NCBI GenBank assembly: GCA_964016885.1
Contig: OZ024742.1
Location: 364,932,001-364,996,000 of the forward strand
Length of the DNA: 64,000 nucleotides
DNA from: Eledone cirrhosa
Taxonomy: Eukaryota
Direction: 5' to 3'
Shown: in pieces, positions 1,314 to 52,143 of the stretch
How positions within the stretch are numbered: position 1 is the first letter of the stretch
Layout of the letters: the number at the start of each line of letters is the position of its first letter
The notes under the pieces: generated by a model
The model's input: only the letters and a program-made list of their open reading frames with translations
Told to the model about the DNA's origin: nothing
The model's database searches: none
Made by a program: the position numbers and the translations under genes

Positions 1314-1610
1314 AGCTTCTACAGTTTACATCCACTACCTATATATGTGTTCACCCCTCTCATATATCCAATTGTATATATATATATATATATATATAGA
1401 TAGATAGATAGATATAGATAGATATATATATATTGGTAAACGGAATAGAAAACGCTGACAAATATTTCACAATGAAAACTAGTTTAATTAGGAATAAGTG
1501 AGAATTAGTAATATTCAGTTTAGTATTCAGTTAGTATTCAGTTTTGGTTTTAAGTTTTACCGGTTGCGCATTTCTAATGCTTTTCAAAAATAATTTTGAG
1601 ATAGAGCGTC

Positions 1611-1672
<62 letters not shown>

Positions 1673-1678
<6 letters not shown>

Positions 1679-3463
1679 GTTTGTAGTTGTAAGGCCAAGA
1701 CAATGCAGGTATGGATATAGAATATAAATGCAAAAACAAAAGATATTGTTGACAATTATTCTTTTACCTTAAATTTATTTAAATATCGTTAATTTTCGAG
1801 ATAATATCTCTTTTTCGGAGGCAAGTAAAGTGGTTAATCCAGTATTCTAATTAGCTTGCCAAGTCATGCTGACAGGAAATGGTATAGAGATTCCATTCTA
1901 TCTCTAATGTCAAAGAGTGAAGGTTAGGTAGATAAAGAGTAGTCTCCCTTTAAAAGGGATTTTGTACATGTTTGTTTAAGTGTGTTGGAGAATACGTGAA
2001 GGCGTAAGTATACTTGTGTGTGTGTGTGAGTGTGAGAAGATATGTCTATACGTAAATGTGGGGATAGATGCTCTATCACGTTAAGAGTGGTCTTTGTGTG
2101 TGTATGTGTGTGAGAGAGAATAAGTGGAGGTGTAAGCGTTTGTGTGTGTGTGCGTGTGCATGTGTGTGAGAGAGGGTGGGGTGGGGATGTAAGTGTGGGG
2201 CTATGTGCTCTATCATGTTATAAATTGGGTGTTGAGTTCTAGTCTATTATTGATTGGTGGTTGTGTTTTGTCTATAATCAGTGCTTCCTTAATTCTAAGA
2301 TTGCCGAGGTTTCTTTCCTTAGTTTCTATCCTAACTGTTATGTTTTTGTCAGTGCTTTTGCATTTAACTAGGTGTTTCTTAAATGAGGAAGCGTTAGTGT
2401 GGTGGTGTTCTTTTATTCTTATGTGGAGTGGTCTGATGATGCTACCTACGTAGAAGTTGCTGCATTTGTCGCACTCTAGTTTGTATACGACGTAAGCCTG
2501 GTGGCATAGGTCTGTGTCGTTGATGGGGCAGTTGGCTAGCCTGCAGCGCCTGTCATGTCTGGTGGAGTGTCTTTTGGTTAGCTGTCCACGTAGAGAAGGT
2601 CCTGTGTGGGCTAGTTGGATATCTAGTCCCTCTCGTCTGATAGCTCTGTGGATGGCTGTTGTTGTTTCTTCACTGAAGTGTGGGAGCTTCAGGAAGCAGG
2701 TATTAGTGCCTCGGGTATGGTGTCCTCTGTTCCTTCTGGCACGGTTCGTGGTGAACGTCGGGTATCCGTTCAGTTTGAGTACTTCCAGGAAATGTGTGGT
2801 GTGTGTGTATCTGTCTCTTGCGTCGGTGCATTTGTTCCGGATACGTGTAAGTTCGTTCCTTATGTATCCGAACTTAGCGCCAGCTGGGATGGCCTATCTG
2901 AAATGTACGAACAGGTCCCTGCTGGCGGATTTTTTTATAGAAGCAGGTGTGGATGTTGCCTTCTCTGTTACCCTGAGTTGGAAGTCCAGTAGGGATAGGG
3001 ATCCGCGGTCATCGGGGTGTTCTATGCTGAACTTTATACTGGCGTCCATGCTGGAGAACATACTCACATACACACACACGCGCGCATACTTATGCGTTCA
3101 CGTATTTTCCCACACACTTAAACATACATGTACAAAATCCCTTTTAAAGGGAGACTACTCTTTATGCACCTAACCTTCACTCTTTGATATTAGAGATAGA
3201 ATGGGATCTCTATACCATTTCCTGTCAGAATGACTTGGCAAGCTAATTAGAATACTGGATTAACCACTTTTCTTCCCTCCGGAGAAGAGATATTATCTCG
3301 AAAATTAAGGATATTTAAATAAATTTAAGGTAAAAGACTAATTGTCAACAATATCTTTTGCATTTGCATTTATATTCTATGTCCATACCTGCATTGTTTT
3401 GGCCTTACAACTACAAACGTTTATACCTCGTTACACAATGCTTCAAGTGAACTACAACTTCCT
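1673..3463 (-). mobile_element. 5'-truncated Penelope-like retroelement flanked by inverted pseudo-LTRs
   Basis: Arms of ~360 bp at 1673-2035 and 3061-3424 are reverse complements and enclose a PLE ORF remnant. Both ends abut (TA)n. Confidence 0.85.
2213..3060 (-). pseudogene. Penelope-like RT thumb plus GIY-YIG endonuclease remnant
   Basis: Minus strand reads IKFSIEHPDDRGSLSLLDF ... LKLNGYP ... CRLANCPINDTDLCHQAYVVYKLECDKCSNFYVGS..RIKEH ... LRIKEALII..QPPIN, with an internal stop at ~2894. Confidence 0.9.
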
Positions 3464-3519
<56 letters not shown>

Positions 3520-3633
3520 TAGTACGGTGAAGTACTTTGTTGGTACCAAATCAAGCACACTATGCACAGGCAAAGTGTATATGAGAGAAACAACGAGGAA
3601 GTTTCTTTTACATATGAAAAATATTTATTGCGT

Positions 3634-3732
3634 ATCGACCTGTTACGCGCATTTCGCAGAGAATTGGCTCAAGGTGACCCATAGGTGTTATAGACCAAAC
3701 TCCAGTATCGATCTGCTCCTCAAACTGGTGAT
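3634..3732 (-). ncRNA. Degenerate type I hammerhead motif
   Basis: Reverse complement reads atcaccagt-TTGAGGA-GCAGA...TCTGC-GAAAT gcgc GTA-acaggtcgat. C3 is changed to T, stem II has a long loop and stem III is near-palindromic. Confidence 0.6.
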
Positions 3733-5606: not shown

Positions 5607-8199
5607 CACACTCACACTATATATATATATATACATATATATATATGCATACTGATATGCACATATATTATCAGTGTATGTACGTATGATGTATGTTTTG
5701 TGTGTCTATATCTGTGCGTATGAATGTGTGTAGGCTTGTGAGGACGGATTAAGTGACTAATGCCAACAAATTTGAATTCATCTTCCAATACTGTTCTGCT
5801 ATGTGATGAAGGAGAAGAAAATAGAATTGTTAGCATACATAAGATCTGTTAAATGCTGAGATAATTAGAAATTTATGTGTGATAGAAAAGAATGTGTAAT
5901 TCTTTAATCCGAGTATTGAAAAGGATGTAAAAGAAACAAGATAGATTTCTGATACACGCCAGAATAAAAGAGAACATAATGAAATATTTGTTCGGTGGAG
6001 TTGTGTTGTGAAACCAGCGCTAAGATGGATAATTAACACAAAAGAACACACAAACAAAATAACTGCTGCTACTATGGAGACATGGAGTTGATGTAAATGA
6101 AAGCCTACAGTATTTAAATTGTTCAAGAATACAAAACGCAGCCATAAACACATTTGAAAAATTAATTATTTATAATATTGGCACATGACCTACATTTTAA
6201 AGGATGTTGCAATTCGTTTATATCGACCTCGGTACATGGCTAGTACTTTATTTTATCAGCCCGGGAAGGGTGAAATGCAGCGTCGACCTCAGCTGAAATT
6301 GAGCAGAGGACGTAGAAAATCCTATAAAAACAACAATAAAGTTATTTGACCCGCTACCGTTACAGCTAATATTATTGAAACAAAATATTAAAAATAGAAA
6401 ATTACGAACTCCCATCAGGAAGTGTAGAGATGAATTGTGACTGCAAACGAAATATACTCTGTAGAATGTCATAGGTTCTGACTTATTTTCTGGTTCCAAT
6501 CTCATCGACACAGCCACAAATCGTTTTTAGGCCTGTTGTCATCCAAGAACTTCAGTGAACTCGGTTTGTCGGGAGTAGTCCTCAATTGAGGAAGAAGCCC
6601 CATAGTGTAAAATGGTTGATGCAGTGTGTTTTACCGGTTTTTCCCTCGTGATGCGGCTCTCCCCATCGTGTCCACGAGGCCCAGCCTAGATGTAGTGCCT
6701 AACCAAGGGTGTGGTGTCACTCCCTTTCTAAATTCCGTGTCTTTCATTACCAAACCGCCCGAAACCGCCTCTCATTATATCAAACAAAACAACCTCGTTT
6801 ACAAGATTCACATATAAATTTTCCAACATTATCTCTCGCTAAAATTCTTTGTCTTGCTGTCTGTCAGTCTGTTCCTATGCATTCTCAAACGGCTGGACCA
6901 AATCAAATCAAACTTTACCAGGTAATAATAGTATTAGACCCCGGGCGTGTGAACATGTAATTTTTATTATTTTCATTTGGATTTTAAAAATATGACATTT
7001 TATCTAAAATGATATTTCTATAGTGAACTATAGTAAACCACCACTACCACGACGACGCGTCACAGTGTGTATGTGTCTGTGAGTGTGTTTGCGAATTTGT
7101 TGCATACACATCATCACACACAGACAATTAAACACACACACACATCTACACATACATATACATATGTGATGACAGACGGGTGTGCGTGAATGTATGTCTT
7201 AGTATATGTATGTGAGAGTGTGTGAGAGTGTATGTGAGAGTGTATGTATGCGGGAGTGTATGTGTGTCTGAGTGTATGTGAGAGTGTACGTGTGATAATT
7301 TTTATTTGGATTAAAACAATAGAAAACAACACACCTTTGTCACATTGTTTATATGAATATGTATGTATATGTGAGTGTGTGTGTGTGTGCGCGTTCAATA
7401 GGTACCTGATTAAATACATACATCTACACATACATATACATATGTAGCAACTGACCAAACATGAAGTGAAAATCTAAGCCTGTGTCTGCGTGAATATATG
7501 TCTGTCTTAGTATATGTATGTGAGAGTGTATGTCTGTGTGTGTCTGTCTTAGTATATGTATGTGAGAGTGTATGTGTGTGTCTGTCTTAGTATATGTATG
7601 TAAGAGTGTATGTGAAAATTACAAGCTTTCACCAAGTGAAATATGTATCCTGTTTTACGGAGGAGATTGGTGCTTTTTGAGGCGGTTATTTGATCTTCAG
7701 GTGCTACTGGCAAAACTATATTTAGTGTATATCTCCACATGACAGATGATTTTATTTATCTCTTTTTGTTTTCTTGTAAAACATTGACACTACATTTTCG
7801 AGAGCTATGGTTGCATTAATCACAGAATCTAGGGGATTCAACATATATATTGCTACTTAATTTACTCACATTGTGAGAAGAGAATCAGAGTATCTGTTAC
7901 CATCATGGGCCCTGAATAGAGCAGGAATTGTTATAGCCGTTACAGAGGCCGATGGCATTAATAGCCTATTATACTTCAAATAAAACACATTGAGTAATTT
8001 GAAACTAGAATTATTGTATCCGATAGTTATGAAATTCATCAAGGTTGAGCAGGGGCTGGACAATAAAACGAATTAGGGGTATTCGTATAATACTTAGTAA
8101 CATACCCATTGTTTTCATTTAATCTACATATTTAAGGTGAATGTTCATAGTCTAGACTTCTAACAGTATAAATGAAACTTTACCCTGAATCAGAAAAGT

Positions 8200-10192
8200 T
8201 TGAAAAAAGCATTCGATAGTTTGCCACACAGTTGGATTGAAAAATGTTTAGAGATTTTCAAAATATCTCCCGTTGTCAGGAGGTTTTTGTCATTCAGTAT
8301 GAAGACATGGAAAACGACACTCCTTTTGAATAGTGAAACAAAATCACTGGAAGCTGGAGAAGTTAATATTAATTGTGGAATTTTTCAGGGTGACTCTTTA
8401 TCACCGCTTTTATTCTGCATCGCACTTATACCATTAAGTAAAATGCTCAATGAAACAAAACATGGATATAAAGTGTATGACAAAACCATTAATCACCTGT
8501 TCTACATGGATGACCTGAAACTATTTGCAAAAAATGATGAACAATTGCAAGGGCTATTATCCACTGTGAAGCAGTTCAGTGATGACATTAAAATGGAGTT
8601 TGGACTAGAAAAATGCGCCAAAGCAACGTTCACCAGAGGAAAGCTGCTGAAGAGTTCAGACATTAATCTTGATCGGGGGAACGTGATAAGAGAACTTGAT
8701 CAAGAAAAAACTTACAAATATCTAGGTGTTTGTGAAGGAGACGGAATCAAGCACTCGACAATGAGGGCAAGGATAAGGAAGGAATGTTACCGCAGAGTAA
8801 GAGCAATCTTAAGAACGGAATTGAATGCAAGGAATAGGATCGATGCCATAAACCGCTTGCCATACCAGTAGTAACCTACAGTTACAATGTCATCAACTGG
8901 TCAAGCACAGAGATCCGTAGGCTCGATACAAAAATTCGAAAATTCTTAACCATGCACAGAATGCATCACCCTAAGGCAGATATAGATAGAATATATCTCT
9001 CTAGGAAAGAACGAGGACGTGGGTTAATCCAGTTAGACATTGCGTTGAAAACTGCAACAATTGGATTATCTACATATCTAAGGGAATCACATGATTGGAT
9101 GATCAAACTCGTTTTGAAACACGAAAGCATCAAAAGATCATATTCCATTACAAAAGATGCACAAAGATATAGTAATGGACTACAAATTTCAGAAGTCCCA
9201 TTTACTGCTGAAATGGAAAACAGAAAGAGCAAAGCAGGTAAAAGTAACTGCAAAGAAAGAACTGCTACAGAAACTGGCTAAGAAATGGCAAGAAAAGCCT
9301 CTGTATGGAAAATACCCAGAGCGAGCTAACAATCCTGATGTTGACAAAACTTTAACCCATCAGTGGTTGGCATCCTCTGGACTGAAATCGGAGACTGAAG
9401 GACTGATTATATCAGCACAAGATCAGTGTCTGCCAACAAAAAATTACCAAGCCAACATAATAAAAATGGGTGCAGCCCATTATGCCGTGTATGCAAAAAA
9501 CAACCAGAGACCATTGACCATATAATTTCAATGGGCAGTCCTATAGCTCCAACTGAATACCTAAACAGGCATGACAGAGCTGCACAATACATACATTGGA
9601 TAATGTGTAAGCATTTTGACCTGCCCCATCAAAAGAATTGGTGGGAGCATCAACCACCTCCCATACTTGAAAAAGATCACATCTCAATCTTGTGGAACTT
9701 TAGCATCCAAACAGACCGAAAAATAGATGCAAACAGACCTGATATAATATTGAAAGACTTTCAAAAGAGGGTATGCCTGCTAATTGATATGTCTGTTCCA
9801 ATAGACAAGAATGTATCTATAAAAACATTTGAAAAATTGAGCAAGTATAACGACCTGGAGATAGAAATAGGAAAAATGTGGAAATTGAGAACTAAAACAA
9901 TACCAGTGGTTGTAGGTGCTCTGGGAATGATACCTAAGGGGGCTAATGATTACTTATCGCAAATCCCAGGAAACCCGCGTATAGGAGAAATACAAAAGAT
10001 AGTACTAATGGGAACTGCCCATATACTAAGGAAGATTCTGTCAATATAAGTACATCACAAGTCTAAATACTAAAGATGCATGTGTGAATATGTATGTTCT
10101 TTCTTGAACATGGCGGACCTTGTTGTCTCTTGAGGTCACTGGTTGTGACTTGGTGATAACTCGTATGAACATAAAGCAAGTTAAATGCAACT

Positions 10193-11720: not shown

Positions 11721-14700
11721 ATGGAGACTAGAATGTCATGTGACAGACTCTCACCCAACAGGTGCTCCCTGGCTCAGCAGCAGGGACCTGGCTCTCAACC
11801 AAATACTGCTGGTGTCGGAGGAGGAAGAAGTAGTAGGAAAGGGACCAGAACCAACTGGACGAAAGAATTGAATATAACTGTTATGCAATGTTACCTGAAG
11901 AGTAACCCCCAAGGAGAAAGGCTATAGGAAACGGATGCATAACATCTGGAACGAGATTGGTCTATTTAAATTAGATTAACAAAAATTGGCCGGGCAGATT
12001 CGGGTAATAAGAACTAATGGGTGGATAAGAGAGCTGGAACTGGAGGAACTGAGCAGAGAGATTAGCTTGGAGATGGAGAGTGGAGTATGCCAGGCAAACG
12101 AGCCAGTGGGAAAAAGTTAAAAGAAACAACAGCTAAGGTAAACAAAGTCATCCCATTCCTTGAGGCGAGGAGCCTTCACCAGTGCAACAATATCCTCAAA
12201 GCAACAGCAAATACGGTGAGGAAACTACTTGGTATAAAAGCGAGAGGAAACAACAGACAAGAAAGATCAGACGTTGGTGGAAGAAACGACTGAGTGGTCA
12301 AATCAGGGAAATGAGAAATGACATTGGAAAGCTTGAGTCCCTACTGAATGGGACACTAAAAAACATAGACACTAAAATTAGACTGGATATAAAGTACAAA
12401 TCTAGGAGCAAAAAGCTAAATATTATCATAGAGGAACTGAAGCAACGCATTGTAGCAAAGAGTGCAAAAATCAGGCGATACGAGAACAGAGTCAGTCAGT
12501 ATAGACAGAACCGCATGTTCGACAACAACCAGAAGATGCTGTTTGGACAGCTTGAAGGGAAAGAAAGAGGCAACGACTTGATCCCTGAGGCGGAACAAAC
12601 TAAAACATTCTGGAGAGGAATATTGGAGCAGGATGTTAAACATAATGACCAGGCAGTGTGGATTGAGACAGTACAGAAGGAGATTAGTGAACAGGCACAC
12701 CAACAAACTGATTTGAGTATCACAGTTGAAACTCTTAAGGGGCAGGCCAAAAAACTAACCAACTGGAAATCACCAGGCCCAGATGGTGTGCAGGGGTATT
12801 GGATTAAAAATATAACATCCCTCCACCCGAAACTGACAACCATGTTCAATGACTGCTTGATGTCAGGTGAGGTACCAGGGTGGTTGACAAAAGGTACCAC
12901 AGCTCTGATAATGAAAGACCGAATCAAGGGTAATGATGTTACCAACTATAGACCTATCACATGTCTGTCCGTAATGTGGAAACTGTTGACAAGCATTATG
13001 TCTGAGGAAATCTACCATCACCTCCACATAAACAGCTTGTTACCGGACGAACAGAAAGGATGCCGAAAGAAGTCACGTGGTACAAAGGACCAGTTCGTTA
13101 TTGATAAGATGGTAATGAGGAATTGCAAGAGGGGACACACTGGTCTTGCCATGGGATGGATAGACTACAAAAAGGCATTTGACATGGTGCCTCATTCTTG
13201 GATCACCAAAAGCCTGGAGATCTTCAAGGTGGCAGATAACATCAGACAGTTGTTGGGCAAAAGTATGAAGTCCTGAGAAACAGAGTTAACATCGGCTGGA
13301 GAATCCTTGGGAGGCGTGAAGATCAAGAGAGGTATCTTCCAGGGAGATAGTCTGTCCCCTCTGTTGTTTGTCCTTGCCCTGATGCCCCTGACCAGTGTAC
13401 TGCGAAAAGTGAGAGCAGGATACAGGTTGGGAAAGGGAGGGCTTACCATCAATCACCTCCTCTTCATGGACGATCTTAAGCTCTTCGGGAAGAGTGAGAA
13501 GGAGTTGGATATGCTTGTTGACACTGTCCGTATTTTCAGCAATGATATATGTATGCAATTTGGTATTAGTAAGTGTGGAGTCCTTGCGATGAAGAGGGGT
13601 AAATTGAGCAGAAGTAACGGAATCCAGGTACCAACAGGTGAGATGATAAAGGAAATTGACTCTGAAGAAGGATACAAGTATTTGGGTGTTCTGGAGGCTG
13701 ATGACATCAAGAACAAAAAAATGAAGTAATTGATAAGAACTGAATACATTCGGAGAGTAAGGAGCGTATTAAAGTCACATCTGAACAGTAGGAATGCCAT
13801 AAGTGCAGTAAATTCCCGAGCTGTGTCTATTATTAGGTACAGTGCGGGAATCCTGAGATGGAATGTTGCTGAACAAAAATAAATGAATAGGAAGACTAGG
13901 AAGCTATTGACTATCTACAACATGTTCCACAAGAGGAGTGATGTCGATAGACTCTACTTAAGGAGATCTGAAGGTGGAAGAGGTCTTATCAACATAGAGG
14001 ACTGTGTTCAGATGGAGAAAACCAACCTACACAAATACGTGACTGATAGTAAGGAGCCAATGCTCAGAACTGTACTGAAGGAGGGGACAATAGACCAGGG
14101 GATGTCCAAGGAGGAAATAACATCAAGGAGAAAGAGCAGCCTTCAAGAAAAATCCATTCATAGTACCTTCTTTGAGAAAACTGAATTCAGAGATCCACAG
14201 ATATGGAACTGGTTGAAAAGAGGAGACCTTAAAAAGGCTACAGAAGGAATGTTAATGGCTGCGCAGGAGCAGACCCTCAATACGAAGGGGTTGAAACACC
14301 ATATTTACAAGGAGGAGGCTAGCCCACTGTGCAGGACCTGTGGAGAGAGAGAGGAGACTGTGGCTCACATTGTATCCGAGTGTAAACACCTAGCCCAGAC
14401 TTATTATAAGAGCTGGAGACATAATGTGATGGGCAGGGTGATCCACTGGCATCTATGCAAAGTAAACAATTTACCACATTCTGAGAAGTGGTATGAGCAT
14501 AAGCCAGAGTCGATGATAGAAAACGATCAGGTGAAGGTGCTGTGGGATTTTAGGATACAGACGGACAAGAAACTTGAACACAATAGACCTGACCTGGTGG
14601 TTGTGGACAAAGAAAAAGATCGTGCCTGATTGTGGATGTGGCCTGCCCATTCGACACGAGAGTGCAAGAGAAGGAGAGGGAGAAAATTAACCGATACCAG

Positions 14701-20424: not shown

Positions 20425-20655
20425 GAAGGCGCATGGCTTAGTGGTTAGAGCATTAGGCTTGAAATCGAAAGGTTGTGAGTTCAATTCTCGAACCGGGTGA
20501 TGTCTGGTTTCCTTGAGCAAGACAATTTATTTCACGTTGCTCCAGTTTACTCAGCTGAAAATGGACTGGCATCTTGTCCAGGGGGGAGTGTTGTACTCTC
20601 AGTCGCTTCACGCCATGAAACCGGCCAAACGAGCCTTCTGGCTTAAGAGAGACTT
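20425..20655 (+). mobile_element. tRNA-derived SINE with CORE-like body
   Basis: A-box tggcttagtgg, B-box gagttcaattc, followed by tccttgagcaagaca...gttgctccagtttactcagctg. Confidence 0.85.
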
Positions 20656-25604: not shown

Positions 25605-25792
25605 TATTTATTAAAATAACAGATTAAATTTTAAGCAAAGAATCGCTGCTTTCACCCTTAACGGGATCTTCTGAAACTAACAAAGTCAATCTGTAAACGT
25701 TTACAGATTGACTTTGTTAGTTTCAGAAGATCCCGTTAAGGATGAAAGCAGCGATTCTTTGCTTAAAATTTAATCTGTTATTTTAATAAATA
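25605..25792. repeat. Spacerless palindrome with 94-bp arms
   Basis: Centre is aaac|gttt at 25698/25699. One mismatch was seen between the arms. Flanked by (TA)n and a ~70-bp tail. Confidence 0.95.
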
Positions 25793-25885
25793 TTTACTCT
25801 ACGGTTCTTATATATCTGATATATATTTATCCTTATCGAGCCCTCTTTGGATTTTAGTCTTCAAATTTATTATTATTACTATTAT

Positions 25886-25991
<106 letters not shown>

Positions 25992-26071: not shown

Positions 26072-26512
26072 ATATACAATATATTAACAAATGGAAACTA
26101 TATTTATAAAACCATATTTATTTTATTATACATATTTCAAGGGCCACCAAGGCAAATTATGGTGCGCTTTCATCAGATAAAATACAATAAAGATTAGTTT
26201 TATAAATAAATATTGACATACCCTGAAAAAAGACAACCTTAACGGTTGGAGCTTCCTGGATAGCTTCCTGACTATCCAGGAAGCTCCAACCGTTAAGGTT
26301 GTCAATTTTCAGGGTATGTCAATATTTATTTATAGCGCACCATAATTTGCCTTGGTGGCCCTTGAAATATGTATAATAAAATAAATATGGTTTTATAAAT
26401 ATAGTTTCCATTTGTTAATACATTGTATATTTACTCCACTAAACTGTTGAGTGCTTTATATCAGTTATAAAAATGTTTAAGCTTGTTGAATCCCAACAAA
26501 TTAAATATAACC

Positions 26513-26515
<3 letters not shown>
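26072..26515. mobile_element. Fold-back hammerhead element
   Basis: Arms at 26072-26263 and 26272-26430, an 8-nt spacer, a tail containing ttgagtgct, and (TA)n on both sides. Confidence 0.85.
26119..26184 (-). ncRNA. Type I hammerhead ribozyme motif
   Basis: Reverse complement reads tattttat-CTGATGA-aag..cacca/tggtg..ctt-GAAAT atgt ATA-ataaaata. Stem I is a perfect 8 bp. Confidence 0.85.
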
Positions 26516-26590
<75 letters not shown>

Positions 26591-26977: not shown

Positions 26978-27017
<40 letters not shown>

Positions 27018-27024
27018 AGAAAAA

Positions 27025-27217
27025 GTATGACCCCGACGGCAGAGCTCAAGCCGTTTCGACGGCTATTTCTGGACTGAAATAGTCCAGAAATAGCCGTCGA
27101 AACGGCTTGAGCTCTGACGTCGGGGTCATACCTTTTCCTATTTCCCACTCTACTACCCTAAGTTTTGAGTACTCTGGTGCGTTATGGTCCATCTCGTTCC
27201 TTACCACAATTCCTTTG

Positions 27218-27220
<3 letters not shown>
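27025..27220. mobile_element. Small fold-back element (51-bp arms plus tail)
   Basis: Arms at 27025-27075 and 27081-27131. Related pieces lie at 19862-20000(-), 28096-28147, 48900-48948, 54120-54218 and 60210-60245(-). Confidence 0.85.
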
Positions 27221-27265
<45 letters not shown>

Positions 27266-27594
27266 ATTATAATGAAATGACAGGAGGCTGGATTTGTGTA
27301 AATCCTTGAAAGGTTTATTATACTATGATTATTTCAATGACCGGGTTCCGTATGAAATGATCATACTATAATAAACCGGTCATTGAAATGATCATAGTAT
27401 AATAAACCTTTCAGGGATTTACACAAGTCCAGCCTCCTGTCATTTCATTATAATATTTATCTCCGTAATAGCACCACCAACTACAAAAACGAAGACGGTT
27501 GAACTGCTTTACGTTGAGTACTCTCCATATTATTACATTAAGATTGACCATACGGAATTGACCAGCTCTGTCCAGTGGTGAACCTCAAACCTGA

Positions 27595-30454: not shown

Positions 30455-32100
30455 TATTATTATTATTATTATTATTGTTATTGTTATTCCTTGAATCTCA
30501 GTCATTGATGTTGGTTAACTGGAAAGTCCGTTGGATTGAATATCAAGCCACTACCTGCAGCCTCAGATATTCAGGACGTATCGGAGGGTTCTTGCCGTTC
30601 CAAGCAAGCATGCCTTTTGAAGCGTTCCAAAAAGCGTGAAGGGGCCGATTTTCTTTAACCATCCCTGGAAACCTTTGGAGATAGTCCCCAGTGCGCCTAT
30701 GACAATCGGGATCACTTTGACTTCATGGCAGTTCCAAATCCTTTTCACCTCCCACTTTAGGTCCTGGTATCGGTTAATTTTCTCCCTCTCCTTCTCTTGC
30801 ACTCTCGTGTCGAACGGGCAGGCCACATCCACAATCAGGCACGATCTTTTTTCTTTGTCCACAACCACCAGGTCAGGTCTATTGTGCTCCAGTTTTTTGT
30901 CCGTCTGTATCCTAAAATCCCACAGCACCTTCACCTGACTGTTCTCCATCACCGCCTCTGGCCTATGCTCATACCATTTCTCAGAATGTGGTAGATTGTT
31001 TACTTTGCACAGGTGCCAGTGGATCACCCTGCCCATCACATCGTGTCTCCAGCCCTTATAGTGGGTCTGGGCTAGGTGTTTACACTCGGACACAATGTGA
31101 GCCACAGTCTCCTCTCTCTCTCCACAGATCCTGCACAGTGGGCTAGCCTCCTCCTTGTAGATATGGTGCTTCAACCACTTCGTTTTGAGGGCCTGCTCCT
31201 GCGCAGCCATTAGCATTCCTTCTGTAGCCTTTTTGAGGTCTCCTCTTCTCAACCAGTTCCATGTCTGTGGATCTCTAAATTCAGTTTTCTCAAAGAAGGT
31301 ACTATGAAGGGATTTTCCCTTAAGTCTGCTCTTTCTCCTTGATGTTATTTCCTCCTTGGGTATCCCCTGGCCTACTGTCCCCTCCTTCAGTACAGCTCTG
31401 AGCATTGGCTCCTTACTATAGGTCACGTATTTGTATAGGTTGTTTTTCTCCATCTGAACACAGTCCTCTATGCTGATAAGACCTCTTCCACCCTCAGATC
31501 TCCTTAGGTAGAGTCTATCGACATCACTCCTCTTGTGGAACATGTTGTAGATAGTCAATAGCTTCCTAGTCTTCCTATCCATTTCTTTTTGTTCAGCAAC
31601 ATTCCATCTCAGAATTCCCGCACTGTACCTAATAATAGACACAGCTCGGGAATTTACTGCGCTTATGGCATTTCTGCTGTTCAGATGTGACTTCAATACG
31701 CTCCTTACTCTCCGAATGTATTCAGTTCTTAACAATTCCTTCATTTTTTTGTTCTTTATGCCATCAGCCTCCAGAACGCCCAAATACTTGTATCCTTCCT
31801 CAGAGTCAATTTCCTTTATCATCTCACCTGTTGGTATCTGGATCCCGTTACCTCTGCTCAACCTACCCCTCCTCATCACAATGACTCCACATTTACCAAT
31901 ACCAAACTGCATACATATATCACTGCTGAAAATACGGACAGTGTCAACAAGCACATCCAACTCCTTCTCACTTTTCCCGAAGAGCTTAAGATCGTCCATG
32001 AAGAGGAGGTGATTGATGGTAAGCTCTCCCCTTCCCAACTTGTATCCTGCTCTCACTTTTCGCAGCATAATGGTCAAGGGCATCAGGGCAAGGACAAATT
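30455..32100 (-). mobile_element. Dong family B LINE, 5'-truncated, open 506-aa C-terminal ORF
   Basis: ORF 30563-32083 has FMDD, a zinc knuckle, RHD and REL, and is highly similar to 13370-14975. (TAA)n flanks both sides. Confidence 0.93.
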
Positions 32101-32164
32101 ATTATTATTATTATTATTATTACTATTATTATTACTTTTTTTTTTTTTTTTTTTTTCCAATTCA

Positions 32165-35100
32165 ATGATGTTCCAGAACAATGTAAACGAGGTAATTGCC
32201 AATTTGGGTTCTGGAACAAAAAAGATCATTGGCAATAAGGGCAGGGGCCCCAAGTTATCACAACCTGGGCCCGCCCGTCATCGTGCCATTGTAATAGAGC
32301 CAAACAGGGCATTTAGTCTTGGCTGCTGGAACGTACGGACGCTGCTTGACAGGGATTCTTTGGAGCGTCCTGAACGAAGGACCGCTCTTGTTGCAAAGGA
32401 GCTTCGACGTTACGATCTTGACATCGTGGCTTTATCTGAGATGAGGTTAGCTGGAGATGGTCATCTTACGGAATTTTGTGGAGAATATACATTCTTCTGG
32501 AAAGGAAGAGATGAAGGAACCAGAAGAGAGGCTGGGGTAGGATTTGCTGTTAAGACTGTACTGGTGAATAAATTAGAAGAATTCCCAGTAGGGATTAGTG
32601 AGAGTCTTATGTCCATGAGAGTTCCGCTGGACAAGGGAAGATATGCTACCCTGGTGAGTGTGTATGCTCCAACTATGAATTCTGTCGATGAAGAAAAACT
32701 GTCCTTTTACCATGCCTTGAAAGGTGTTCTAAGAAATATCCCTCAGGCAGACAAAGTCATCGTGCTTGGTGACTTTAATGCTATAGTGGGTAGGGATTTT
32801 AACACATGGAATGTAATCGGAAGGCATGGGGTGGGAAAGTGTAACAGCAATGGTATGCTCTTGCTGCAGATGTGTGAGGAGCTGGATCTGTGTGTTACCA
32901 ACACCATGTTCCAACAAAAGAACAAATTCAAGACCACATGGATGCATCCTGCATCTAAGGAATGGCATCTTTTGGATTACGTCCTAGTCAGGATGCGTGA
33001 CAGACAGGATGTGCAGTGTGTTCGTGTTCTTCGTGGAGCTGAGTGCTGGACGGACCACCGCCTGGTACGCGCAAAAGTGAATCTAATCACCAAACGTAAA
33101 ATCCGGGCTCCTGGTGTTACCCTGCCCAAAAGATTGAATGCTGCTCGTCTTAAGGATAAAAATGTGAAGAGGACATTGGAAGAAGAGATGCAGGCTGCAG
33201 ATCTTGGTGAGGATTGGCCGATCCTTAAAAAGTCGGTTTATGATGTAGGCAGACGTGTTCTGGGATTGGTGCAGAGAAAACATCAGGACTGGTTTAATGA
33301 GAATGATGTACATATAGAAGACTTGTTGGCTGATAAGAGGCGTGCTCTGTCACGCTACTTGACGGCAAAACCACAGGAGAGGAATACGTTGCATGAGGAG
33401 CTCAGGGATGTAAAATCACGTGTTAGGCGGAGTCTTTCTCAGATGAAGGATCAGTGGTGGAGTGAGAAGGCTGCTGAGATACAAACTGCGTCTGATTGCA
33501 ATAACACAAAGCTGTTGTACAGTCTCTTGCGTGAGGTTTATGGACCGTCTTCTTCTCTGGTGACACCGATTCGCAGCAAGGATGGCAAAGAACTTCTTCG
33601 TGACTCACAGGGAATTCTACGAAGATGGCGAGAGAACTTTGATGATCTTTTGAATCAGCCGTCTATCGTCAGTGAAGATTTCCTCAATCTCATTCCGGAA
33701 AGTCCTGTGAAAGTAGCTCTCCCAGAACCTCCGACGCTTGTGGAGGTTGCAGTGGCTATTTCGAAGCTGAACAGTGGAAGATCTCCAGGTATGGATGGCA
33801 TACATGCTGAGCTCCTACAATATGGTGGTGAGAGTCTCCTGCAACATCTTCACTCTCTGTTTGGAAGGATATGGGCTAATGAATCCGTGCCTGAGGACTG
33901 GAGAGATGCAGTAATGGTGGTCTTGTACAAGGGAAAGGGTAACAGGAATGATTGTGGGAACTACAGAGGTATATCATTGCTTTCTGTCGTAAGGAAAGTT
34001 TTATGTAGGGTGCTTCTGGACCGTCTGCTGACACACATTGCAGATTGTGTCCTTCCTGAAAGTCAATCTGGTTTTCGTGCTGGACGCGGCACTACTGATA
34101 TGATCTTCTCAGCTAGACAGCACCAGGAGAAGTGCACTGAACAGGGCTTGGATCTGTATCAGGTTTTTGTCGATCTGACAAAGGCTTTCGATACTGTCAA
34201 CAGAGATGCATTATGGAAGGTTCTCCAGAAACTTGGTTGCCCTGATAAGTTCCTTGCGTTAGTTAGGTCTTTCCATGACGACATGAAGGCTTGGGTCAAT
34301 GTCGGAGGTAACATGTCGGAGCCTATCTCAGTAAAAAATGGAGTGAAACAGGGGGATATTCCAGCACCGACCCTGTTTGCCATATACTTTGCAATGGTTT
34401 TCTGTATTGCATTCAGGAATTGCGAGCATGGTGTTTACATCCGATATCGAACCTCAGGCAGCATATTTAACATCAGGCGCTTTGCTGCGAAGACAAAAGT
34501 ATTTACATCAGTCATAAGAGACCTCTTGTATGCAGATGATTGCGATCTTGTAGCGCACACAGAGAGTGATATGCAGCACATTTTGAATGTATTTTCTGAC
34601 GCTTGCACTGCCCTGGGTTTGACTGTCAGTCTCAAGAAAACCGTCGTCATGTACCAACCTGCCCCTAGTAGGCAGTACACTGAACCAAACATCTATGTGT
34701 ATGGCAAACGACTTGGAGTGGTTGATCAGTTTGTCTACCTGGGAAGCACTGTCAATCGATACGGCAACCTTGACAGTGAAATCTCACTTAGGATTAGGAA
34801 AGCAAGTGATGCTTTCGGAAAGCTAGAAAGGCGACTCTGGGGTCGGCGAGACATATGCAGGAGGACAAAGGTAAGGGTGTACAGGGCATGTGTACTCTGT
34901 TGTCTTCTTTATGCCTGCGAGACCTGGGTCACATATCGACAACACCTTAAGCAATTGGAGCGTTTCCATCAGATGTGTCTCAGACGGATCCATGGCGTTC
35001 ACTGGAGGGACCACATCAGTGATGTCGAGATTTTGGAAAGCTCTATGTGTGACAGTATAGAAGCTCTTGTGCTTAAGCAACGACTCCGTTGGAGTGGTCA

Positions 35101-35710
35101 CCTTGCCAGGATGAAGTATTCTAGAATACCAAAACAACTCTTCTATGGAGAGTTGGTTAAAGGAAAACGACCGCCACATAAACCAAAAAAGAGGTATAAG
35201 GATTCCTTGAAAGCCTCTCTGTAAGACGCTAACATCTCTGCTGATACATGGGAAAATATTGCTGCTGATCGTAATAAATGGAGAAAGACTGTATATGAGG
35301 CAAAAGTTGCCTTTGAGGCATCTCGAATCGCACACGAGAAAGTAAAGCGGGACGTGAGGAAGGGCATTGCTGTTGCACTTCCAGACGGCGAGGGTCCTCC
35401 TATGGTTCTGACATGCAGCGTCTGTGCGAGACTCTGCCTAAGCAAAGCTGGGCTCGAAAGTCATCTTCGCAGTCATAAAGTAAGACCAATGGTTGACTAC
35501 CAGGCTGCTGTTGGAGATGCTACTCATCATGCTTGCCAAACATGTGGTGGAGAATGTAAATCAGCAGGAGGGCTCAAGCGACATGCAAAAGTACACGAAC
35601 TCCAACCACAGCCGACTATTCCCAGTGAATGTTTTGGTTGCCGACTCTGTGCAAGACATTTTAGATCTTTGGCTGGGCTAAAAAGCCACATTCGATCGCA
35701 GCACTGTTAG
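32165..35710 (+). pseudogene. RTE-clade LINE ORF (APE endonuclease + RT + 3 C2H2 fingers) with one in-frame stop
   Basis: WNVRTL, SE.R, GVGF, YAPT, GDFNA, LDY and TDH (APE), then NYRGISLLS, VDLTKAFD, GVKQG and YADD (RT). TAA at 35222 is followed in frame by WENIAADRNKWR and the 35354-35710 zinc-finger ORF. Ends at (GT)n. Confidence 0.93.
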
Positions 35711-39134: not shown

Positions 39135-42100
39135 AAGAACAGGAGATTGCAGTCAACAGGTAAATTACGTTGGTACCAACCTTTACACTAGAGAAGAAGA
39201 GATTGTAGTCAACAGGTAAATTACATTGGTACCAACCTTTACACTAGAGAAGAAGAGATTGTAGTCAACAGGTAAATTACATTGGTACCAACCTTTACAC
39301 TAGAGAAGAAGAGATTGTAGTCAACAGGTAAATTACATTGGTACCAGCCTTTACACTAGAGAAGAAGAGATTGTAGTCAACAGGTAAATTACATTGGTAC
39401 CAGCCTTTACACTAGAGAAGAAGAGATTGTAGTCAACAGGTAAATTACATTGGTACCAACCTTTACACTAGAGAAGAAGAGATTGTAGTCAACAGGTAAA
39501 TTACATTGGTACCAACCTTTACACTAGAGAAGAAGAGATTGTAGTCAACAGGTAAATTACATTGGTACCAACCTTTACACTAGAGAAGAAGAGATTGTAG
39601 TCAACAGGTAAATTACATTGGTACCAACCTTTACACTAGAGAAGAAGAGATTGTAGTCAACAGGTAAATTACATTGGTACCAACCTTTACACTAGAGAAG
39701 AAGAGATTGTAGTCAACAGGTAAATTACATTGGTACCAGCCTTTACACTAGAGAAGAAGAGATTGTAGTCAACAGGTAAATTACATTGGTACCAGCCTTT
39801 ACACTAGAGAAGAAGAGATTGTAGTCAACAGGTAAATTACATTGGTACCAACCTTTACACTAGAGAAGAAGAGATTGTAGTCAACAGGTAAATTACATTG
39901 GTACCAACCTTTACACTAGAGAAGAAGAGATTGTAGTCAACAGGTAAATTACATTGGTACCAACCTTTACACTAGAGAAGAAGAGATTGTAGTCAACAGG
40001 TAAATTACATTGGTACCAACCTTTACACTAGAGAAGAAGAGATTGTAGTCAACAGGTAAATTACATTGGTACCAGCCTTTACACTAGAGAAGAAGAGATT
40101 GTAGTCAACAGGTAAATTACATTGGTACCAGCCTTTACACTAGAGAAGAAGAGATTGTAGTCAACAGGTAAATTACATTGGTTCCAACCTTTACACTAGA
40201 GAAGAGATTGTAGTCAACACGTAAATTACATTGCTACCAACCTTTACACTAGAGCAGAAGAGATTGTAGACAACAGGTAAATTACATTGCTACCAACCTT
40301 TACACTAGAGAAGAAGAGATTGTAGTCAACAGGTAAATTACATTGGTACCAACCTTTACACTAGAGAAGAAGAGATTGTAGTCAACAATTAAATTACATT
40401 GGTACCAACCTTTACACTAGAGAAGAAGAGATTGTAGTCAACAGGTAAATTATATTGGTACCAACCTTTACACTAAAGAAGAAGAGATTGTAGTTAACAG
40501 GTAAATTACATTGGTACCAACCTTTACACTAGAGGAGAAGAGATTGTAGTCAACACTTAAATTACATTGGTACCAACCTTTACATTAGAGAAGAAGAGAT
40601 TGTAGTCAACAGGTAAGTTACATTGGTACCAGCCTTTACACTAGAGAAGAAGAGATTGTAGTCAACAGTTAAATTACATTGGCACCAAACTTTAAACTAG
40701 AGAAGAAGAGATTGTAGTCAACAGGTAAATTACATTGGAACCATACTTTACACTACAGAAGAGATTGTAGTCAACAGGTAAATTACATTGGTACCAACCT
40801 TTACACTAGAGAAGAAGAGATTGTAGTCAACAGTTAAATTACATTGGTACCAAACTTTACACTAGAGAAGAAGAGATTGTAGTCAACAGGTAAATTACAT
40901 TGGTACCAACCTTTACACTAGAGAAGAGATTGTAGTCAACAGGTAAATTACATTGGTACCAAACTTTACACTAGAGAATAAAGAGATTGTAGTCAACAGG
41001 TAAATTACATTGGTACCAAACTTTACACTAGAGAAGAAGAGATTGTAGTCAACAGGTAAATTACATTGGTACCAACCTTTACACTAGAGGAGAAGAGATT
41101 GTAGTCAACACTTAAATTACATTGGTACCAACCTTTACACTAGAGAAGAGATTGTAGTCAACAGGTAAATTACATTGCTACCAACCATTACACTAGAGAA
41201 GAAGAGATTGTAATCAACAGGTAAATTACATTGGTACCAACCTTTACACTAGAGAAGAAGAGATTGTAGTCAACAGGTAAATTACATTGGTACCAACCTT
41301 TACACTAGAGAAGAAGAGATTGTAGTCAACAGGTAACTTACATTGGTACCAACCTTTACACTAGAGAAGAAGAGATTGTAGTCAACAGGTAAATTACATT
41401 GGTACCAACCTTTACACTAGAGAAGAAGAAATTGTAGTTAACAGGTAAATTACATTGGTACCAACCTTTACACTAGAGGAGAAGAGATTGTAGTCAACAC
41501 TTAAATTACATTGGTACCAAACTTTACACTAGAGAAGAAGAGATTGTAGTCAACAGGTAAATTACATTGGTACCAGCCTTTACACTAGAGAAGAAGAGAT
41601 TGTAATCAACAGGTAAATTACATTGGTTCCAACCTTTACACTAGAGAAGAGATTGTAGTCAACACGTAAATTACATTGCTACCAACCTTTACACTAGAGA
41701 AGAAGAGATTGTAGTCAACAGGTAACTTACATTGGTACCAACCTTTACACTAGAGAAGAAGAGATTGTAGTCAACAATTAAATTACATTGGTACCAACCT
41801 TTACACTAGAGAAGAAGAGATTGTAGTCAACAGGTAAATTACATTGGTACCAACCTTTACACTAGAGAAGAAGAGATTGTAGTCAACAGTTAAATTACAT
41901 TGGTACCAAACTTTATACTAGAGAAGACGAGGTTGTAGTCAACAGGTAAATTACATTGGTACCAACCTTTACACTAGAGAAGAAGAGATTGTAGTCAACA
42001 GGTAAATTACATTGGTACCAACCTTTACACTACAAAAGAAGAGATTGTAGTCAACAGGTAAATTACATTGGTACCAACCTTTACACTAGAGAAGAAGAGA

Positions 42101-44825
42101 TTGTAGTCAACAGGTAAATTACATTGCTGCCAACCTTTACACTAGAGAAGAAGAGATTGTAGTCAACAGGTAACTTACATTGGTACCAACCTTTACACTA
42201 GAGAAGAAGAGATTGTAGTCAACAGTTAAATTACATTGGTACCAAACTTTATACTAGAGAAGAAGAGGTTGTAGTCAACAGGTAAATTACATTTGTACCA
42301 ACCTTTACACTAGAGAAGAAGAGATTGTAGTCAACAGTTAAATTACATTGGTACCAAACTTTATACTAGAGAAGAAGAGGTTGTAGTCAACAGGTAAATT
42401 ACATTGGTACCAACCTTTACACTAGAGAAGAAGAGATTGTAGTCAACAAGTAAATTACATTGGTACCAAACTTTACACTAGAGAAAAAGAGATTGTAGTC
42501 AACAGGTAAATTATATTGGTACCAGCCTTTACAGTAGTGTAGAAGAGATTGTAGTCAACAGGTAAATTACATTGGTACCAAACTTTACACTAGAGAATAA
42601 AGAGATTGTAGTCAACAGGTAAATTACATTGGTACCAAACTTTACACTAGAGAAGAAGAGATTGTAGTCAACAGGTAAATTACATTGGTACCAACCTTTA
42701 CACTAGAGGAGAAGAGATTGTAGTCAACACTTAAATTACATTGGTACCAACCTTTACACTAGAGAAGAGATTGTAGTCAACAGGTAAATTACATTGCTAC
42801 CAACCATTACACTAGAGAAGAAGAGATTGTAATCAACAGGTAAATTACATTGGTACCAACCTTTACACTAGAGAAGAAGAGATTGTAGTCAACAGGTAAA
42901 TTACATTGGTACCAACCTTTACACTAGAGAAGAAGAGATTGTAGTCAACAGGTAACTTACATTGGTACCAACCTTTACACTAGAGAAGAAGAGATTGTAG
43001 TCAACAGGTAAATTACATTGGTACCAACCTTTACACTAGAGAAGAAGAAATTGTAGTTAACAGGTAAATTACATTGGTACCAACCTTTACACTAGAGGAG
43101 AAGAGATTGTAGTCAACACTTAAATTACATTGGTACCAAACTTTACACTAGAGAAGAAGAGATTGTAGTCAACAGGTAAATTACATTGGTACCAGCCTTT
43201 ACACTAGAGAAGAAGAGATTGTAATCAACAGGTAAATTACATTGGTTCCAACCTTTACACTAGAGAAGAGATTGTAGTCAACACGTAAATTACATTGCTA
43301 CCAACCTTTACACTAGAGAAGAAGAGATTGTAGTCAACAGGTAACTTACATTGGTACCAACCTTTACACTAGAGAAGAAGAGATTGTAGTCAACAATTAA
43401 ATTACATTGGTACCAACCTTTACACTAGAGAAGAAGAGATTGTAGTCAACAGGTAAATTACATTGGTACCAACCTTTACACTAGAGAAGAAGAGATTGTA
43501 GTCAACAGTTAAATTACATTGGTACCAAACTTTATACTAGAGAAGACGAGGTTGTAGTCAACAGGTAAATTACATTGGTACCAACCTTTACACTAGAGAA
43601 GAAGAGATTGTAGTCAACAGGTAAATTACATTGGTACCAACCTTTACACTACAAAAGAAGAGATTGTAGTCAACAGGTAAATTACATTGGTACCAACCTT
43701 TACACTAGAGAAGAAGAGATTGTAGTCAACAGGTAAATTACATTGCTGCCAACCTTTACACTAGAGAAGAAGAGATTGTAGTCAACAGGTAACTTACATT
43801 GGTACCAACCTTTACACTAGAGAAGAAGAGATTGTAGTCAACAGTTAAATTACATTGGTACCAAACTTTATACTAGAGAAGAAGAGGTTGTAGTCAACAG
43901 GTAAATTACATTTGTACCAACCTTTACACTAGAGAAGAAGAGATTGTAGTCAACAGTTAAATTACATTGGTACCAAACTTTATACTAGAGAAGAAGAGGT
44001 TGTAGTCAACAGGTAAATTACATTGGTACCAACCTTTACACTAGAGAAGAAGAGATTGTAGTCAACAAGTAAATTACATTGGTACCAAACTTTACACTAG
44101 AGAAAAAGAGATTGTAGTCAACAGGTAAATTATATTGGTACCAGCCTTTACAGTAGTGTAGAAGAGATTGTAGTCAACAGGTAAATTACATTGGTACCAT
44201 ACTTTACACTAGAGAAGAAGAGATTGTAGTCAACAGGTAAATTACAATGGTACCACCCTTTACACTAGAGAAGAAGGGATTGTAGTCAACCGTTAAATTA
44301 CATAGGTACCAGCCTTTACACTAGAGAAGAAGAGATTGTAGTCAACAGGTAAATTACATTGGTACCAGCCTTTACAGTAGTGAAGAAGAGATTGTAGTCA
44401 ACAGGTAAATTACATTGGTACCAGCCTTTACACTAGAGAAGAAGAGATTGTAGTCAACAGGTAAATTACATTGGTACCAACCTTTACACTAGAGAAGAAG
44501 AGATTGTAGGCAACAGGTAAATTACATTTGTACCAACCTTTACACTAGAGAAGAAGAGATTGTAGTCAACAGGTAAATTACATTGGTACCAACCTCTACA
44601 CTAGAGAAGAAGAGATTGTAGTCAACAGGTAAATTACATTGGTACCAGCCTTTACAGTAGAGAAGAAGAGATTATAGTCAACAGGTAAATTACATTGGTA
44701 CCAACCTTTACACTAGAGAAGAAGAGATTGTAGTCAACAGGTAAATTACATTGGTACCAGCCTTTACAGTAGAGAAGAAGAGATTATAGTCAACAGGTAA
44801 ATTACATTGGTTTCTGCTTTACACT
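39135..44825 (+). repeat. 56-bp tandem satellite, about 100 copies
   Basis: Unit is gagaagaagagattgtagtcaacaggtaaattacattggtaccaacctttacacta. There are no unique spacers. Confidence 0.98.
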
Positions 44826-45483: not shown

Positions 45484-45585
45484 GTATTGAAGTTTCCGTT
45501 GAAAATTGAAAAAGTCATAGGAGTGAAGAGTGCTCTATGTAAGTACCAGAGCTAAATTTAATGTATAATAAACAATACAATATAA

Positions 45586-45659
45586 TTACCCCATTACCAG
45601 AGGTTTCCCGAATAAGACGAATACGAAAAACGTACTCATTCGTTCATCGGATAAGGCAA
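45586..45659 (-). ncRNA. Type I hammerhead motif (CCGAUGA core variant)
   Basis: Reverse complement reads ttgccttat-CCGATGA-acgaatgag...cttattcgg-GAAAC ctctg GTA-atggggtaa. Stem I is 9 bp including wobbles. Confidence 0.75.
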
Positions 45660-47365: not shown

Positions 47366-47439
47366 TTGCCTTGTGCGATGAACAAATGAGGACGTTTTTC
47401 GTATTCGTCTTATTCGGGAAACCTCTGGTAATGAGGTAA
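47366..47439 (+). ncRNA. Degenerate sister hammerhead motif
   Basis: ttgccttgt-GCGATGA-...-GAAAC ctctg GTA-atgaggtaa. The core is mutated. Confidence 0.6.
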
Positions 47440-47454
47440 TTATATTGTATTGTT

Positions 47455-47549
<95 letters not shown>

Positions 47550-47970
47550 TATATACCTTTCTGATTGACCATTAGTTCCACGAAGAACAAAATGCCTGTT
47601 GAGAAAGTGATTCCTTGTTCGGTCATTATACCGAAAGCTTATTATTTTTTATAAGCAAGCAGTATTATTGATTTAGATATCGCAGAAACCCTATATCGGA
47701 GTATAACATCTTCCCCGAAGATCCGCGTAACTATTTCAATCATATCTTATATTGTTTGACCCGTTTAGCTTGTTCGCTTTTTGGACTTGGATGGTTAATG
47801 GCTTTTTAACCATCGTCTAAGCTTTGTATGACCTTTTTAACTTATGTTTATAGATCTGGTATCTGCATATCCATAGAGCGCTTGTCAACTCAATTCGGAA
47901 TTTGCGTTTCGCTAATTTCTACCCGCCGAAATGCGATTCTCACTAAATTTATATATATATATATATATAT

Positions 47971-48813: not shown

Positions 48814-48820
<7 letters not shown>
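47971..48820 (+). mobile_element. Retrozyme-like element: inverted arm plus ~1.6 tandem copies of a 451-bp monomer
   Basis: 48110-48350 recurs at 48561-48820, 47971-48108 is the reverse complement of 48162-48280, a hammerhead lies between the direct repeats, and both flanks are (TA)n. Confidence 0.85.
48477..48521 (+). ncRNA. Minimal type I hammerhead ribozyme motif
   Basis: aatattg-CTGATGA-gttg taacaa caac-GAAAC ta GTT-ccatatt. Stem III is the palindrome AACTAGTT. Confidence 0.85.
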
Positions 48821-49805: not shown

Positions 49806-49916
49806 GATATATATATATATATTAAGTGTTTCCGTAGGAAAGGTAAAGGAAAGGAGAGTGCCCTATGTAAGCTACAGAGCTTTTTAGTTAGGTAATAAAC
49901 AACATAAGACAATTAT

Positions 49917-49987
49917 TCCATTTAGCAAAGGTTTCACGAAGACAGACGTGATTGACGCATCCGTCTGAAATCGCTCATCAGAATGAA
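49917..49987 (-). ncRNA. Type I hammerhead motif
   Basis: Reverse complement reads ttcatt-CTGATGA-gcga..agacg/tgtct..tcgt-GAAAC ctttg CTA-aatgga. Confidence 0.7.
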
Positions 49988-50013
49988 TTTTATTTGATGC
50001 GGATGTAAGATAT

Positions 50014-52098: not shown

Positions 52099-52143
<45 letters not shown>

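Follow-up and report, generated by a model that had tools for sequence, protein, structure and literature searches.

A dead Penelope-like element in a truncated, inverted and one-tailed insertion form, probably of a Nematis-like family

Results

Structure of the insertion

The Penelope-like element (PLE) at 1676-3465 is, with high probability, a dead insertion of a Nematis-like PLE with a C-terminal GIY-YIG endonuclease (EN+), in the published form that combines a truncated copy with an inverted, likewise truncated one and a tail. It is set between (AT)30 and (TA)26 within the window, i.e., the whole 64-kb stretch of DNA that was analyzed (Table 1). In a self-comparison, its arms (1672-2034 versus 3059-3425) aligned in inverted orientation with 92.4% identity over 367 nt; over 363 columns they differ by 24 substitutions, and there is a single indel of 4 nt. 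As the arms are 6.6% different, an assembly artefact is unlikely. They represent the element's own 3' end and are set apart by 1.0 kb of unique sequence; the long and inverted copies measure ~1.38 kb and ~0.41 kb, respectively. The initial annotation, which was made from the sequence alone, had described inverted arms of ~360 bp with a short tail and (TA)n on both sides, and this description holds.

Both ends of the element directly adjoin a TA run, and 143 such runs (≥ 5 units) occur in the window. The left arm ends at the first presumed reverse-transcription start site, and its final bases, TTTATA, match the TA target. At the junction 3058/3059, we looked for microhomology, a palindrome, and a TA run, and saw none. 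Self-comparison and blastn revealed no further copy of the element sequence in the window.

Table 1. Features of the coding element and of the non-coding fold-backs in the window.
Feature	Position	Strand	Remarks
(AT)30 target microsatellite, left flank	1615..1675	none	target-site duplication unreadable within
Left arm	1676..2034	minus	3' end (3' UTR/pseudo-LTR) of the long copy
Decayed type I hammerhead, left arm	1764..1824	minus	descriptor match with 2 core mismatches
3' UTR	1940..2216	minus	CA-rich, diverged ~137-bp tandem duplication
5'-truncated PLE ORF	2213..3058	minus	late RT motifs, thumb, C-x4-C-x7-C linker, GIY-YIG endonuclease
Head-to-head junction	3058..3059	none	two 5'-truncated copies
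Right arm	3059..3425	plus	second copy, inverted and 5'-truncated
Hammerhead, right arm	3273..3333	plus	decay stronger than in left arm; core CCGGAGA, break in stem I at 3275
One-sided tail, 40 nt	3426..3465	plus	with predicted ORF start of the element (ATG 3438, MLQVNYNFL)
(TA)26 target microsatellite, right flank	3466..3517	none	
Fold-back A	45487-47466		hammerhead 45650 minus
Fold-back B	49822-52103		tail 49822-49884; hammerheads 49981 minus, 52007 plus
Fold-back C	53351-53563 / 55471-55680		hammerheads 53477 plus, 55559 minus
Fold-back D	61990-62088		tail 62000-62087

Coding remnant and clade

The minus-strand frame 3058-2213 comprises 282 codons with a single internal stop (2894-2896) and is 57% identical over 282 aa to the RT+GIY-YIG protein P0001 (tblastn E 5e-101), which confirms the GIY-YIG/RT-thumb remnant previously noted between the arms. 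On a family profile of 832 nodes, made from 21 long homologues, the fragment occupies nodes 547-826, comprising late RT motifs, thumb, linker, and endonuclease. The catalytic YxDD of the RT is absent from this range, and this copy has lost roughly two thirds of the ORF, with the RT active site in the missing part. The match to Pfam GIY-YIG is weak (E 0.031, under the curated cut-off). The fragment keeps the catalytic residues R, H, E, and N and the CCHH motif, and C141, C144, H163, and H174 (CCHH), R159, E203, and N215 are invariant in 11 of 11 aligned sequences. The reading frame stops exactly at the start of the inverted arm, and the contig of another copy (sequencing run X4) extends the RT frame upstream beyond 3058. 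It follows that the copy is truncated at its 5' end and incapable of autonomous movement.

By the homologue profile, PLE coding sequence is found in the window solely at 2213-3058, and no GIY-YIG domain was found in the 15 other long ORFs scanned. Among 1.84 billion representatives searched for homologues, 1,025 proteins had E ≤ 0.001. The nearest named protein comes from Octopus bimaculoides (57%), and UniRef entries of this species are the sole named relatives. Four homologues were scanned for domains, revealing GIY-YIG in all four and RVT_1 in three. A metagenome scan with the PLE protein gave 120 pattern matches, none of which was confirmed. An overlapping plus-strand frame (2496-3173, 225 aa) had no Pfam match and was rejected as an antisense shadow. 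In one O. bimaculoides gene model, P0002 (UniRef A0A0L8GYC4), a relative of the fragment (residues 3-277) is fused to a long unrelated region (PF05672); this is a gene-model artefact or an exonised copy.

Compared by eye with a published alignment, the family looks like a Nematis-like PLE with a C-terminal GIY-YIG domain (EN+). It displays a single ORF with the order RT to GIY-YIG in one frame as well as an inverted pseudo-LTR, formed by the 367-nt arms, both of which are features of EN+ PLEs. The linker cysteines C117, C122, and C130 are invariant among the aligned sequences, and C-x4-C-x6/7-C occurs in 122 of the 171 homologues fetched (no match in 45, other spacings in four). Like the Nematis rows of PMC8557442 (figures S2 and S7), the fragment has a C-terminal GIY-YIG with CCHH and a short linker with Cys just ahead of the GIY motif; furthermore, SDKGxEF and L(I/V)KTHK of the homologues match these rows by eye. 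The rows shown are nematode sequences, and the C-x4-C-x7-C linker of the fragment has one Cys fewer than the CX2-5CxxC of Nematis.

Three other clades were excluded, using the definitions of Hydra, Naiad/Chlamys, Penelope/Poseidon, and Nematis in the relevant sections of Craig 2021 (PMC8557442). The Hydra clade, which lacks CCHH and has DKT in place of DKG as well as a CxCX5C linker, does not fit because CCHH is present and the homologues have DKG. Naiad/Chlamys (N-terminal endonuclease, no canonical hammerhead) is ruled out by the C-terminal endonuclease, and Penelope/Poseidon (no Cys linker motif) by C117, C122, and C130. Repeat annotation of O. vulgaris already counts Penelope-like families. 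Our literature search, with Repbase and Dfam outside its scope, found no paper on the present family or on octopus PLE fold-backs; the family may be catalogued already.

Hammerhead motifs in the arms

An eroded hammerhead-like string had been reported in both arms. It is real, and the left arm fits a type I descriptor, but the right arm as it stands fails it. The left-arm string reads TTGCCT, CCGAAAA, an extra A, GAGAT-ATT-ATCTC, GAAA, 24 nt, and AGGTAA. Stem I is formed by TTGCCT/AGGTAA, the core CCGAAAA corresponds to U4C plus G8A, and the extra A precedes the pair G10.1-C11.1; stem II comprises 5 bp, and stem III is weak, with a 10-nt palindrome in its loop. Dinucleotide shuffles of the left arm matched the descriptor in 3 of 1000 cases in its relaxed and 0 of 1000 in its tighter version, rates that are optimistic as the descriptor was composed after the motif had been seen. 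MFE and centroid folds of the left-arm motif form stems I and II, but the folding energy of the two motifs is no better than that of shuffles (z 0.23 for the left arm and 0.92 for the right). Rfam revealed no hammerhead at E ≤ 10 over 1500-3700 (32 matches, mostly TA-repeat microRNA models) and none at gathering score in the whole window, where the near-consensus motifs at 49981, 52007, 53477, and 55559 were missed too.

Nearly all other copies of the family have an A at 3282 (157,804 of 157,821 in summed depth, run X1; 1,239 of 1,250 reads, run X8), which turns the core into CCGAAGA with one departure (U4C) from the consensus. No change at 3280 was found among the 40 of 260 rows listed, and U4C seems to be a family trait. 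In the part of Perreault 2011 considered, U4C is said to reduce hammerhead activity in vitro. The PLE hammerheads described in the sections used of Cervera and de la Pena 2014 (PMC4209133) are likewise of type I, with an extra nucleotide between 9 and 10.1, a G10.1-C11.1 pair, and a palindrome in loop 3; the present motif differs by its U4C core and its long, weakly paired helix III. According to the same sections, such motifs also occur in pairs, one on each strand, at distances of 100-700 bp. Another register, with a cut after GUA at 3332, was discarded by eye since stem I would not pair. Also by eye, the hammerhead of Hydra-1_Obim (PMC8557442 supplement) is unlike both the motif described here and those of fold-backs A-D.

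One-sided tail and ORF start

By its predicted peptide, the tail is the start of the element's own ORF. The peptide MLQVNYNFL is identical to residues 1-9 of P0171 at seven of nine positions (blastp E 0.047). It is the best of ~128,000 nine-residue words from the six frames of the window, the runner-up reaching 5/9. P0171 is a full-length protein of 859 aa that clusters with P0003 (a 47%-identical homologue), and several other full-length homologues have a similar opening stretch. Another tail frame, NVYTSLHNASSEL, was rejected as ORF start, being unsupported by the 21-homologue profile. A 25-nt pattern of the tail gave no matches in a metagenome scan. In rotifer PLEs, pLTR and tail span the first 12-22 codons according to the pertinent part of Arkhipova 2013 (PMC3846280).

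The same 8-mer, AACTACAA, lies 8-9 nt ahead of each end (3409-3416 and 3450-3457; chance not computed), and the presumed hammerhead cut, predicted after 3327, lies ~96 nt ahead of the arm end. A comparable arrangement appears in the portions used of Frangieh 2024 (PMC11167929) on an anole PLE, Poseidon PAc from Anolis carolinensis. Both target strands are cut and extended there, and the tail is the stretch between two RT start sites, which are located in an AC-rich region within the ORF start. PAc and the present element share a hammerhead followed by two RT start sites (presumed sites in our case), which lie around the ORF start and delimit the tail, as well as an AT-rich target. The distance from hammerhead cut to arm end is 85-92 nt in PAc, as subtracted from the published figures, versus ~96 nt here. 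In contrast, the PAc ORF begins inside the hammerhead, while our ATG lies 111 nt past the presumed cut and within the tail; furthermore, PAc belongs to the Penelope/Poseidon clade without linker motif, whereas the present PLE has the Cys linker. As the tail carries a PLE ORF start, the fold-back layout is tied to PLE reverse transcription. The link between this layout and PLE machinery that had been suggested initially is upheld: the element is a PLE, its arms contain a decayed hammerhead, and it shows that PLE machinery produces fold-backs with a one-sided tail at (TA)n.

Copies of the family

The family is multi-copy. In run X1, 2,638 contig pieces across all identity bands match 2035-3475, and three further runs carry the family; no RNA dataset with the family was present among the sequencing runs listed. 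The stop at 2895 is peculiar to the copy in the window. At five of five listed sites that vary in many other copies, the two arms agree with each other, and at four of four listed sites that distinguish the arms, the common letter is found in the left one, which indicates that the arms stem from one donor lineage. Drift since insertion amounts to ~3% per arm.

Summed contig depth in run X1, which does not equal copy number, was 138,000-211,000 for the hammerhead-plus-tail region (3260-3455) versus 15,000-64,000 for the ORF. In addition, strand-switch joints within the pseudo-LTR were detected at 3230/3369 (8 reads) and 3254/3344 (22 reads), with two to three starts each and from one reduced-representation library. 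Depth and joints tentatively suggest that the family makes many short non-coding fold-backs of its own. Read data, in which 94 contigs and 486 reads extend past the stretch's end (letters not shown), are no more than suggestive of family-wide (TA)n targeting; the (TA)n insertion itself is seen at one locus.

Comparison with the non-coding fold-backs

The coding element had been called exactly like the non-coding fold-backs of the window, which applies to the layout but not to the sequence. With microsatellites masked, self-comparison identified nine or more further inverted elements that have a TA run at one end and are extended by 62-134 nt on one side only (at 25605, 26074, 27015, 27260, 45564, 47970, 49885, 56988, and 63116). 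In local alignments of the two 3' ends of the coding element with 13 other ends, none of 26 was significant after accounting for the number of tests; for the best one, 4 of 300 shuffles reached the score (z 3.4), as expected among 26 tests. Pairs among fold-backs A, B, C, and D, in contrast, had 0 of 300 shuffles reaching the score in 16 of 18 cases. By blastn with 7-base words, the ends of the coding element matched only its own other arm. The comparison of tails with those of the non-coding elements, which had been proposed initially, revealed no significant likeness in sequence, and tail lengths differ as well (40 versus 62-80 nt).

The hammerheads of A, B, and C are near-consensus type I motifs with CUGAUGA (CCGAUGA in A), GAAACC, and GGUA, and the one-sided tails of the A-D family (62-80 nt) contain a conserved hairpin. 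No ATG was found in the tails of A, B, and D, and no coding partner of the A/B/C/D family was found in the 64-kb window. Judged from these motifs, fold-backs A-D point to PLEs through their own near-consensus hammerheads and one-sided tails. The coding family thus appears not to be cognate to the non-coding fold-backs of the window, and the best reading is that all of them are abortive head-to-head insertions from different PLE families.

Discussion

Origin of the insertion

The element closely resembles inverted EN+ PLEs in the sections consulted of Craig 2021 (PMC8557442) and Arkhipova 2013 (PMC3846280). The former describe an inverted 5'-truncated copy beside the unit, a 30-40 bp tail, and a (TA)n bias, the latter a truncated copy with a stop between inverted pLTRs. 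Shared traits comprise the truncated copy with an adjacent inverted truncated copy, the one-sided tail of 30-40 bp into the first codons, the pseudo-LTR hammerhead, and the (TA)n target without a readable duplication. Compared with what these sections describe, nothing is different in kind; the present element has no direct (tandem) pseudo-LTR and no junction palindrome.

Its formation most likely took the following course. A tandem donor would give rise to an RNA with the order ORF end, 3' UTR/pseudo-LTR with hammerhead, and ORF start; this RNA is evident in part, because the ORF start is found in the tail and the ORF end in the long copy. The GIY-YIG domain would cut both strands of a (TA)n tract, as the flanks and in vitro work on another PLE suggest. 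Each cut end would then prime reverse transcription inside the RNA, one at an upstream site (equivalent to ~3423-3425) and the other 40 nt further (3465), within the first ten codons; such dual priming is modeled on a different PLE clade. Two start sites 40 nt apart would account for a tail on one arm only. Both cDNAs would have halted early (~1.38 kb and ~0.41 kb) and presumably been joined head to head, as the observed structure suggests, and the copy would then have decayed by ~3% per arm. The window's non-coding fold-backs are best taken as the same type of product from other PLE families, for which copying ended before the coding sequence, so that a dedicated partner relation is not required.

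The inverted copy might instead have arisen by self-priming fold-back synthesis on an antisense template, which is a published model for head-to-head PLE structures in the relevant part of Arkhipova 2013 (PMC3846280). Near-perfect hairpins with palindromic centres at 25605-25792, 27015-27141, and 27260-27460 speak for such a process in the window. At the PLE itself, however, the junction lacks a palindrome and microhomology, 1.0 kb of unique sequence separates the arms, and the one-sided tail fits two separate start sites, so we regard self-priming as possible but rather unlikely here. Much less probable is a meeting of two independent truncated insertions in one TA tract, by chance or by later deletion. 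The 6.6% difference between the arms and the frequency of TA runs (143 in 64 kb) would permit it, but there is no TA at the junction, the arms agree at five of five listed subfamily-type sites, and the one-tail layout recurs in at least nine other window elements. Finally, long inverted termini and a TA target are also known from some DNA transposons, and a foldback or MITE-type transposon could have captured a PLE fragment between its terminal inverted repeats. Since the left arm consists of 3' UTR from the PLE itself and runs on from its stop codon without a break, since hammerheads lie within the arms, and since the tail of one end holds the PLE ORF start, we give this explanation hardly any credence; the tail peptide already largely refutes it.

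The initial annotation had further proposed the coding element as candidate autonomous partner of the non-coding fold-backs. This is not supported: the RT active site is gone, an internal stop is present, and 0 of 26 end comparisons were significant. It is also improbable that the family, rather than this copy, moves the fold-backs in trans by shape instead of sequence. The layout and the (TA)n target are the same in the coding element and the fold-backs, the profile finds the sole PLE coding sequence of the window here with no GIY-YIG in 15 other ORFs, and 16 of 19 nt at the equivalent place beside the hammerhead match between the left arm and fold-back B (z 3.4). In addition, the pLTRs of PLEs are able to work in trans on DNA unrelated to them according to a part of Arkhipova 2013 (PMC3846280), where, on the other hand, two PLE types of one host were found not to mobilise each other. 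Against trans-mobilisation, none of the 26 3'-end or tail comparisons was significant, and a 40-nt tail with the ORF start stands against 62-80 nt without ATG. The hammerheads are likewise unlike, with an extra A and a G-C closing pair versus none, and with a long loop III in the PLE element versus 3-4 nt in the fold-backs. The copy in the window lacks the RT active site, and Naiad and Hydra, two other PLE clades with (TA)n as target, are listed for octopus.

Non-autonomous PLE derivatives known so far have the pseudo-LTR sequence in common with their partner, as stated in the portions used of Craig 2021 (PMC8557442) and bioRxiv 10.64898/2026.07.22.740005. The non-LTR retrozymes described in the portion used of the latter are similar in being non-coding hammerhead elements derived from PLE pseudo-LTRs. 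However, they are tandem direct repeats sharing PLE sequence, whereas the present element is coding and inverted and shares none with the fold-backs of the window. A more far-reaching idea is that a Nematis-like enzyme drives unrelated hammerhead fold-backs in trans via RNA shape, with the hammerhead and two repeated motifs marking the RT starts. A dimer would prime from both ends of the cut (TA)n in every insertion, fold-backs would be what it normally yields, and there would be a class of non-autonomous PLEs that propagate themselves as hairpins; we consider this a long shot.

As it stands, the element is of minor weight: it neatly exemplifies an insertion form that has been described before, and adds one more PLE family, in a host that is probably an octopus, as judged by the nearest named protein. 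The tail peptide suggests that one-tailed hairpins be annotated as truncated PLE ends and not as MITEs. A genome dense in one-tailed fold-backs of several families could offer a statistical test of two-ended priming versus self-priming, a question on which PLE biology has yet to decide. For further work on the fold-backs, the A/B/C/D hammerhead family is the better lead.

Other features of the window

A LINE fragment of 1.9 kb on the minus strand (RVT_1 and zf-RVT; 50003-51918) splits fold-back B and has an 11-bp target duplication (50003-50013 and 51908-51918). Further hairpin-plus-tail elements at TA runs, several of which are near-perfect palindromes, lie at 25605-25888, 26074-26516, 27015-27218, 27260-27594, 47970-48817, 56988-58883, and 63037-63183. 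In the element at 26074-26516, there is a hammerhead at 26176 (minus), and its tail contains a short frame that opens with an ATG near 26473. A hammerhead-like pair at 32-176 and 48373-48528 (cores 131 and 48484) is 65% alike (E 6e-10), and a separate type I hammerhead-like motif is located at 37251 (plus).

Frames of non-LTR retrotransposons were found at 31733-35710, 30563-32098, 8176-8871, and 12164-14629, among them several RT fragments and an endonuclease-RT frame of 1,163 aa, behind which C2H2 fingers are located. A satellite at 39136-44811 consists of ~102 copies of a 56-bp unit (94% matches). The stretch 20434-20491 has a tRNA-like head and is probably a SINE (Rfam tRNA, 29.7 bits), with similar stretches in loose inverted matches elsewhere. 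At 1230-1340, short inverted arms enclose a (TA)30 at their centre, instead of having it outside.
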